Below are positions 29,594 to 30,919 of a stretch of DNA of 64,000 bases, in pieces. The notes beneath the pieces were generated by a model that was not told the origin of the DNA, ran no database searches, and was given only the letters and a program-made list of their open reading frames with translations. Every line of letters starts with the position of its first letter. Position 1 is the stretch's first letter. The DNA comes from Escherichia coli (GTDB taxonomy: Bacteria > Pseudomonadota > Gammaproteobacteria > Enterobacterales > Enterobacteriaceae): the NCBI RefSeq assembly GCF_009931435.1, contig NZ_CP043414.1; one strand, written 5' to 3'. The position numbers and the translations under genes were made by a program.

Positions 29594-29641
29594 ATTAGCA
29601 ACAAGCGGAACATCACCTCGCACGGGGTGATGTTCACAAAA

Positions 29642-29815
29642 TCACATTATTTTGATTTTGACATCATAGCTTTCAAGCCCGGTCATTTTTTCTCGTGCGG
29701 TGAAGCGAATTTCAGAGACTTCTTTCCCTGTATTCTTGTTCAGCTCGGCGATTTTTTGCGCGATAAAGTCAGCGATTTCCGTTTCGGCTTGTTTTTTTAA
29801 CTCTTCAATATTCAC
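29642..29815 (-). CDS. gnsA: Small protein GnsA
   Basis: Not in ORF track; minus-strand reading from GTG (revcomp 29813-29815) gives a 57-aa product ending ...YDVKIKIM. Confidence 0.7.
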   Translation of the reverse strand: MNIEELKKQAETEIADFIAQKIAELNKNTGKEVSEIRFTAREKMTGLESYDVKIKIM

Positions 29816-30035
29816 TGTTAACCTCTTCTGGTCTTAAAAGACAGCAACACGCCAGTAAGGTGTTGGTTCCCGGTACCCTGGTCAGGTAAGAAATGTTATA
29901 AGCTATCTCCCCTAAAGATTCAATAATCAACAGGTTATCGCTTACTATACATACAGCGTTGAAGAAAAATAAGGCAGATATAAAAAAGGCTCCACGAGGG
30001 AGCCTGATCTTATTTTGTGAAATCCAGCGGCGCAT
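29805..30035 (-). CDS. ymcE: Small protein YmcE
   Basis: ORF 29805..30068; start at MRRWISQNK (76 aa). Confidence 0.7.
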   Translation of the reverse strand: MRRWISQNKIRLPRGAFFISALFFFNAVCIVSDNLLIIESLGEIAYNISYLTRVPGTNTLLACCCLLRPEEVNSEY

Positions 30036-30208
30036 GGTCAGTGCGTATTTGCAGCGCGACGTTATCAAAGGTGATCATCGTCGATTTACAAAAAATACAC
30101 TTTGCCCCTAAAGGATTTCGCTCCGTCACATCGAATGCCGATGTGCGGTACTGTGAACCATGACAACATGGACAGCGGAAATGGAGATGTTGAGTAATAA
30201 CGGCAACC
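30036..30208 (-). CDS. Candidate small Cys-rich protein (CPCCHG...CIFCK), possibly YmcF; start codon unclear
   Basis: Frame of ORF 30010..30270; motif-bearing part lies in the cspG-ymcE gap; no canonical start after the cspG stop. Confidence 0.3.
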
Positions 30209-30421
30209 TTAGAGCGTAACAACGTTCGCTGCCGCGGGACCACGTTGCCCCTGCTCAATAGAAAATTCAACTTTCTGATTTTCGTTCAGCGTGCGGAATT
30301 CATTGCTCTGGATGGCGGTGAAATGGACGAAAACGTCTTTGCTGCCATCATCAGGAGTGATAAAGCCAAAACCTTTATCTGCGTTAAACCATTTTACTAA
30401 ACCAGTCATTTTATTAGACAT
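30209..30421 (-). CDS. cspG: Cold-shock protein CspG
   Basis: 70-aa [24 protein letters not shown]... with RNP motifs. Confidence 0.95.
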
Positions 30422-30706
30422 ATTTTACTTCCTTCATTTTGGGCCTTTCGGCAAACAGGGCTTTAATACAGAAACTACTTAGTGTTCAGGAGAGAGACTC
30501 AAAAGAAGGGGATAATGCCTGATAATGAGAACTACTTTAGTAAACTACTTTGTATGCTGTCTGTCTTTCAAACCGACGCAGCTATTAACGCATGATAATT
30601 GAGATTAAGCAATTTTTATTTTAGCCGTCCGGCGGTCTTAAATATCGCTGGCTTTATTTTATTAACCCCGTATAGTGCAGCGCAGTATTTTCAGTAAGGA
30701 ATTTGT

Positions 30707-30919
30707 TTGTCCCGTAAAATGACAGGAATTGTCAAAACCTTTGATCGCAAAAGCGGCAAAGGATTCATTATCCCCTCCGACGGTCGTAAAGAAGTCCAGG
30801 TCCATATTTCCGCATTCACTCCCCGCGACGCAGAAGTGCTTATACCAGGATTACGCGTGGAATTTTGCCGCGTAAATGGCCTACGCGGACCAACAGCGGC
30901 AAATGTTTATCTCTCTTAA
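30707..30919 (+). CDS. cspH: Cold-shock-like protein CspH
   Basis: 70-aa [24 protein letters not shown]... Confidence 0.9.

Follow-up and report, generated by a model that had tools for sequence, protein, structure and literature searches.

A rare AUU/AUC start codon, conserved across species and located a few nucleotides after an upstream stop codon, is found in infC (IF3), and ymcF, the gene considered here, resembles it in these respects. The junctions read UAA GGU AUU (thrS-infC) and UAA GGUUGCCGUU AUU (cspG-ymcF); they differ in the gap, which is 3 nt in the former and 10 nt in the latter, and the encoded proteins are unrelated. Reporters of thrS-infC-type junctions assign about half of the initiation events to reinitiation and about half to de novo initiation, with AUU 6–8-fold weaker as a start than AUG (PMC3592434). 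Initiation at AUU is disfavored by IF3, reportedly to a lesser degree at low temperature (PMC5499595). The infC gene is itself cold-inducible (PMC3592434, PMC5499595).

On the protein side, YnfQ (b4724), encoded after cspI in the Qin prophage, is a 62-residue paralogue of YmcF (~69% identity) that shares its CPCC...CIFC core, and a recent review models it as rubredoxin-like with a metal site (PMC13348028). The junctions of cspI-ynfQ (MG1655 Qin, L087:6189-6668) and of the equivalent pair in phage Tritos (L088:1278-1992) consist of TGAGG, 8 nt and ATT. Both display the arrangement of cspG-ymcF, with a csp stop, GG, a 10-nt gap, ATT, a terminator past the stop and gns downstream, and in Tritos, a functional lambdoid phage, the gene order is endolysin, Rz-like, cspI, ymcF-like, ynfN, gnsB. 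The shared junction in Qin and Tritos identifies the chromosomal cspG-ymcF-(ymcE)-gnsA block as a paralogue of the phage cassette. The difference lies in location: ynfQ and the Tritos copy are part of a prophage or phage lysis-region cassette, whereas ymcF resides at the chromosomal cspH-cspG locus. YnfU (b4776), a putative zinc-binding small protein of Qin, also has two CPxC-type knuckles and is encoded in a prophage region with csp genes (the preprint of Weaver et al. treats YnfU, not YmcF). However, its sequence is not evidently homologous to that of YmcF, its knuckles differ in spacing and flanks, and its gene is not beside a csp stop.

The window analysed here, a stretch of 64,000 nucleotides of Escherichia coli DNA, contains a single copy of ymcF. 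An earlier note on this DNA had drawn attention to a Cys-rich frame after the cspG stop; the frame exists as described, on the minus strand with a CPCC...CIFC core, and it corresponds to ymcF, a gene annotated previously in E. coli; it is real and not new. In the ORF listing it appears as ORF 30010..30270 (−), with 86 codons counted from a TTG inside cspG, and encodes ...HFRCPCCHGSQYRTSAFDVTERNPLGAKCIFCKS... The ymcF CDS itself covers 30010..30198 (−) and comprises 62 codons plus a TAA stop at 30012..30010. RefSeq annotates it as a 189-nt CDS, 10 nt past cspG, in a 100%-identical strain and in a second strain, and lists the protein as WP_071524879.1 under the product names “cold-shock protein” and “cold shock small protein YmcF.” The MG1655 counterpart (b4723, 1051684..1051872) has the same relative coordinates and maps to 30010..30198 (−) of the window. 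Nothing in the window gene differs from YmcF (b4723, YMCF_ECOLI), which is annotated with an ATT start and is a member of a curated Pfam family: PF23641 (YmcF-like) matches residues 1–62 on profile positions 1–62 (E = 3.5e-50, 168.5 bits, cut-off 27). The exact sequence occurs in the protein collection as YMCF_ECOLI and on at least 1000 contigs. When 29600..30700 was compared by megablast with 5,426 complete E. coli genomes, 5,416 proved to contain the region, and the features under the match are cspG, ymcF, ymcE and gnsA. As a discovery the gene is minor: MG1655 and most E. coli genomes in RefSeq carry its annotation, and it has a UniProt entry and a Pfam family of its own. Ribosome profiling under cold shock by Zhang et al. 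in 2018 is said to be the source of ymcF. A full-text literature search for ymcF, ynfQ and b4723 returned gene lists and transcriptome mentions alone, and retrieved no experimental report of YmcF translation, initiation site or cold induction.

The upstream cistron, cspG (30209..30421, minus strand), is 100% identical to CspG and ends in a TAA at 30211..30209. The ATT annotated by RefSeq as the ymcF start (30196..30198, minus strand) sits 10 nt after this TAA, whose last bases form AAGG, a Shine-Dalgarno-like motif at 30207..30210 (−) that overlaps the cspG stop and lies 8 nt before the ATT. The codons that follow the cspG stop in the ymcF frame (GTT GCC GTT ATT ACT CAA CAT CTC CAT TTC CGC TGT) include no ATG, GTG or TTG before the Cys motifs, just as the earlier note had stated, and its guess that the frame might be ymcF with an unusual start agrees with the ATT of the RefSeq annotation.

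The start was compared across 80 ymcF loci, for which one genome per species was scanned; with HFRCP as the anchor motif, the homologous start position was read in each locus together with the sequence upstream. At this position, thirty-six loci have ATT (33) or ATC (3) with an intact csp stop 9–10 nt upstream, always within T[AG]AGG, a motif invariant across the csp-coupled loci. The same junction with ATT is seen in three more loci, where it lies at a contig end (L007) or behind a damaged csp (L021, L031). ATG occupies the position in 33 loci without an intact adjacent csp, and is found within two codons of it in another four. ATT is present without csp in three loci of the Pseudescherichia clade (L047, L074, L080), and an ATT-ATG tandem follows a csp remnant in one Atlantibacter locus (L065). 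Every csp-adjacent locus has a stop-to-start gap of 9–10 nt, as do the copies in the Qin prophage and in phage Tritos. The codon preceding the start is free to vary (GTT, ATT, GAT, AAT, TTT, GAA, AGA and others), but the position of the start is not. In the ATG-type loci of Klebsiella/Raoultella, Enterobacter/Leclercia and Atlantibacter the upstream bases look like a decayed csp 3′ end at the same spacing, which indicates that the switch to ATG accompanied csp loss more than once; in Enterobacter, the Shine-Dalgarno motif has in addition changed to AGGAG. The association between start codon and csp is nevertheless partly phylogenetic, with few independent transitions.

At the sequence level, then, ymcF has what is expected of an AUU-initiated gene, a non-canonical start conserved in orthologues, and cspG-ymcF has what is expected of a coupled pair, a start few nucleotides after the stop at a conserved spacing. 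The comparison of start positions argues that the ATT position is the initiation site of ymcF, retained almost only beside a csp stop. Coupling to cspG had been proposed beforehand and fits the distribution of ATT/ATC where a csp stop lies 9–10 nt upstream and ATG where csp is gone. We hold it to be highly probable that ymcF is the second cistron of a cspG-ymcF cold-shock unit, with its own, probably coupled, AUU initiation.

The most serious alternative accepts ymcF as a real gene and has the AUU initiated de novo through its own Shine-Dalgarno sequence, the closeness of the csp stop reflecting nothing more than compact operon packing. Three loci of one clade keep ATT with AAAGGA and have no csp upstream, and reporters place the de novo share of initiation at junctions of this type at about half (PMC3592434). 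No conserved RNA structure occluding the start was found: across 23 coupled loci, RNAalifold returned 0 consensus pairs linking the 3′ end of csp with the ribosome-binding site of ymcF, and the idea of a conserved hairpin hiding this site was dropped. In the E. coli junction alone, the 3′ codons of cspG can pair with the spacer (z = −1.8). Against purely de novo initiation, each lineage without an adjacent csp, bar that one clade, has switched from ATT to ATG, and some have strengthened the Shine-Dalgarno sequence to AGGAG; moreover, packing alone sits poorly with a stop-to-start spacing that is fixed over genera, prophage and phage copies. This alternative is possible, though clearly the less favored one.

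The exceptional loci of the Pseudescherichia clade (L047, L074 and L080, ~2470-2510) combine an ATT-started ymcF with upstream in-frame stops and AAAGGA, with no adjacent csp. They are a counter-example to strict csp coupling, and indicate that AUU can serve without it. An 8-codon ATG mini-ORF overlaps the ymcF start in L047 and L080, while the related L074 is without its ATG. Owing to this missing ATG, the leader mini-ORF was rejected as a general explanation in which it would substitute for csp as the coupling partner.

A very different proposal makes YmcF a C-terminal extension of CspG, produced by +1 frameshifting, which the earlier note had also considered, or by stop-codon readthrough. 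In Escherichia the ymcF frame is indeed open upstream into cspG, up to the TTG at 30270, and at one Citrobacter sedlakii locus csp and ymcF are fused in one frame. However, the frame of ymcF relative to csp varies, being +1 with a 10-nt gap in Escherichia and 0, with the stop in frame and a 9-nt gap, in Kosakonia. In the latter only GGA TTT AGA stands between the csp TAA and the ATT, and with the csp stop in frame with ymcF a conserved frameshift fusion is excluded. In-frame stops are found 4–9 codons before the ATT in several Citrobacter and Kosakonia loci (nine codons upstream of the start in several of the Citrobacter loci), and no canonical start lies between these stops and the conserved core. 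Stand-alone, ATG-started ymcF genes of equal length exist in about 37 species, and in many genera they come with a strong Shine-Dalgarno motif; at the C. sedlakii locus the csp part looks decayed and ymcF has an ATG of its own. Given the varying frame relation and the independent starts, both the frameshift and the readthrough fusion were rejected as very improbable; on the start-position comparison, YmcF would begin at the ATT and would not be an extension of Csp.

The C. sedlakii locus deserves a separate description. In strain NBRC 105722 (L013:2200-2700), the csp ORF lacks a few codons at its end and continues in the ymcF frame, so that the two form a single ORF. Its csp part has VFVPS for VFVHF and KEFN for KWFN, and the ymcF start position is ATG. 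A pseudogene, a natural fusion or an error of assembly might each account for this arrangement.

The coding character of the frame was assessed on codons 2–47 of 79 orthologous sequences. Pairwise differences average 0.17, 0.09 and 0.50 at codon positions 1, 2 and 3, and dN/dS (NG86) is ~0.09; the other two frames over the same bases are interrupted by stops or have a dN/dS of ~1.8. The conservation and synonymous-substitution analysis suggested in the earlier note thus places strong purifying selection in the ymcF frame, and by these measures ymcF is far beyond a chance ORF. Where ymcF and ymcE overlap, most substitutions within Escherichia are silent for ymcF but change a residue in ymcE. 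That the frame is untranslated, its conservation stemming from a cspG 3′ UTR, a terminator or a 3′-derived small RNA comparable to Salmonella STnc220, is scarcely credible: the Rfam STnc220 model does match the last 43 nt of Salmonella ymcF together with the terminator, and the Rfam cspA model does reach 54 nt beyond the cspG stop, but codon periodicity and the low dN/dS are specific to the ymcF frame, the Cys and Gly/Pro positions are invariant in 46 diverse sequences, stand-alone loci with ATG and AGGAG have retained the length of the ORF, and a 3′-derived sRNA could in any case coexist with the ymcF gene.

YmcF belongs to a small and narrow family. A homology search yielded 137 homologues, essentially all from Enterobacteriaceae. 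Most have 62 residues; some are annotated with 70–72 residues from an upstream start, and in these the residue aligned to Met1 is Ile. The narrowness of the family is apparent from a profile search run exhaustively against 1.84 billion cluster representatives: only 41 matched, and with the exception of a single repeat protein, itself a very weak match, all were YmcF-like small proteins. The search connected YmcF to no characterised family. The sole connection to another CxxC family is a weak NCBIfam match to ECs_2282_CxxC (E = 0.003, below the cut-off). A Pfam scan with E up to 10 matched only YmcF-like, Zn_Ribbon_TF and DUF7836, with no match to the cold-shock domain (CSD, PF00313). YmcF was therefore rejected as a CSD protein, and the name “cold-shock protein” reflects context or expression, not homology.

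The protein has a 45-residue conserved core, organized around four cysteines (CPxC...CxxC), while its tail varies. The first knuckle, C9-P10-C11-C12, is encoded at 30163..30174 (−), and the second, C34-I35-F36-C37, at 30088..30099 (−), followed by the conserved K38. The two Cys pairs, described previously as about 24 residues apart, are separated by 25 residues from first Cys to first Cys. In an alignment of 46 sequences the invariant positions are C9, C12, Q16, N28, G31, A32, I35, F36, C37, K38 and M41, and P10, G14, Y17, R18, S20, D23, P29 and C34 are nearly so, C34 being conserved in at least 90% of members. All four Cys of the family core, CPxC...CxxCK, are present in the window protein. 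Since C11 is variable, the putative ligand set is C9/C12/C34/C37.

Zinc ribbons of the TFIIE-alpha/TFIIB type contain two CxxC knuckles with a β-hairpin between them, and bind one Zn through four Cys. The zinc-ribbon-like knuckle proposed in the earlier note fits the invariant Cys pattern, while metal binding itself is a reading of the sequence. AlphaFold gave a poor model with a 33-sequence alignment (pLDDT 55) and a better one with 46 sequences (pLDDT 73, reaching 84–89 over residues 11–40), in which the chain forms short strands and a short helix at residues 44–50. A profile search of PDB sequences gave no match below E 0.07. YmcF is likely a zinc ribbon, judging by its Cys pattern. Because the review model of YnfQ is rubredoxin-like, we commit only to a putative four-Cys metal-binding mini-domain of the zinc-ribbon or rubredoxin-knuckle type, co-expressed with Csp proteins. 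The conserved basic and aromatic surface predicted from R8, Y17, R18, K33 and K38 is compatible with nucleic-acid or protein binding.

The 10-nt gap between cspG and ymcF is too small for a promoter or terminator, so that the simplest transcription unit is a bicistronic mRNA. At its 5′ side, a cspA-type thermoregulator (Rfam RF01766; 156.9 bits vs. a gathering score of 78) matches 30155..30577 (−), from the 5′ UTR of cspG through its coding sequence and 44 nt into ymcF. At its 3′ side, an intrinsic-terminator-like hairpin with a T run occupies 29978..30005 (−); the hairpin AGGCTCCCTCGTGGAGCCT (30005..29987) begins 4 nt past the ymcF stop. A hairpin and T run within 70 nt of the ymcF stop, with a score of −8 kcal/mol or lower, is found in 44 of 81 loci, mostly in csp-coupled genera and Raoultella, and the GC-rich stems differ in sequence. 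Transcript levels of ymcF change together with those of cspG (PMC10920338, PMC11728337). In the Qin cassette, SPA-tagged YnfR, which is encoded right after ynfQ, is reported to be strongly cold-induced (PMC6001520).

Several neighbouring features were also recorded. In Salmonella enterica subsp. diarizonae, the Rfam STnc220 match (102 bits, L015:2647-2726) covers the last 43 nt of the ymcF orthologue and its terminator. This sRNA candidate may represent nothing more than the 3′ terminus of a csp-ymcF message, or it may be a 3′-derived sRNA. In the window, Rfam gives no STnc220 match at the gathering score. Downstream, the annotated ymcE (29805..30035, minus strand) overlaps the last 26 nt of ymcF at 30010..30035, an overlap given correctly in the earlier note, and crosses the terminator. 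In other Escherichia its ATG is changed to AGG (E. albertii and two other lineages), three loci have frameshifts or indels in the frame, and two have premature stops. The coding status of ymcE appears doubtful on this comparison. The 21-codon ynfR, which starts 2 nt past the ynfQ stop, spans the ynfQ terminator hairpin as ymcE spans that of ymcF. From the ymcF terminator to gnsA (29820..29975, minus strand) the nucleotides are highly conserved across Escherichia although the ymcE frame is broken, a pattern that points to a promoter or 5′ UTR element of gnsA and away from coding sequence. On the other side of cspG, the divergent cspH (30707..30919, plus strand) is a 213-nt CDS whose first codon is TTG, with AAGGA 7 nt upstream and an in-frame ATG four codons downstream, at 30719.

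For the cspG-ymcF unit with a separate and probably coupled AUU start, the following sequence of events may be proposed. The cspG cold-shock promoter and 5′ UTR would drive a two-gene transcript, which would end at the hairpin terminator just past the ymcF stop. YmcF would arise from separate initiation at the AUU (30198..30196), and not through frameshifting or readthrough, and most of this initiation would be carried out by ribosomes that have just terminated on cspG or have been recruited beside it. Such coupling would tie the amount of YmcF to the translation of CspG, and the weak start codon would keep it low, in the manner described for thrS-infC. Weaker discrimination of AUU by IF3 in the cold could, hypothetically, favor YmcF synthesis. 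The product would be a small zinc-ribbon-type protein acting in cold shock, which probably binds nucleic acid or a larger protein.

A bolder and more tentative extension, which we regard as possible but doubtful, is that the AUU/AUC 9–10 nt past a csp stop constitutes a regulatory device, through which YmcF and YnfQ would require both csp-terminating ribosomes and the temperature-sensitive discrimination exerted by IF3. If true, YmcF would be made essentially only during cold shock, and ymcF and ynfQ would stand alongside infC and pcnB among the natural E. coli genes regulated through an AUU start. The starts of ymcF and ynfQ are in any event among the very few conserved AUU starts in this organism. 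The retention of AUU with csp and the appearance of AUG after csp loss, with the exception of one clade, provide a natural experiment on coupling-dependent non-canonical initiation, and YmcF and YnfQ represent conserved four-Cys proteins whose genes, be they chromosomal, prophage or phage, are firmly tied to cold-shock csp genes.
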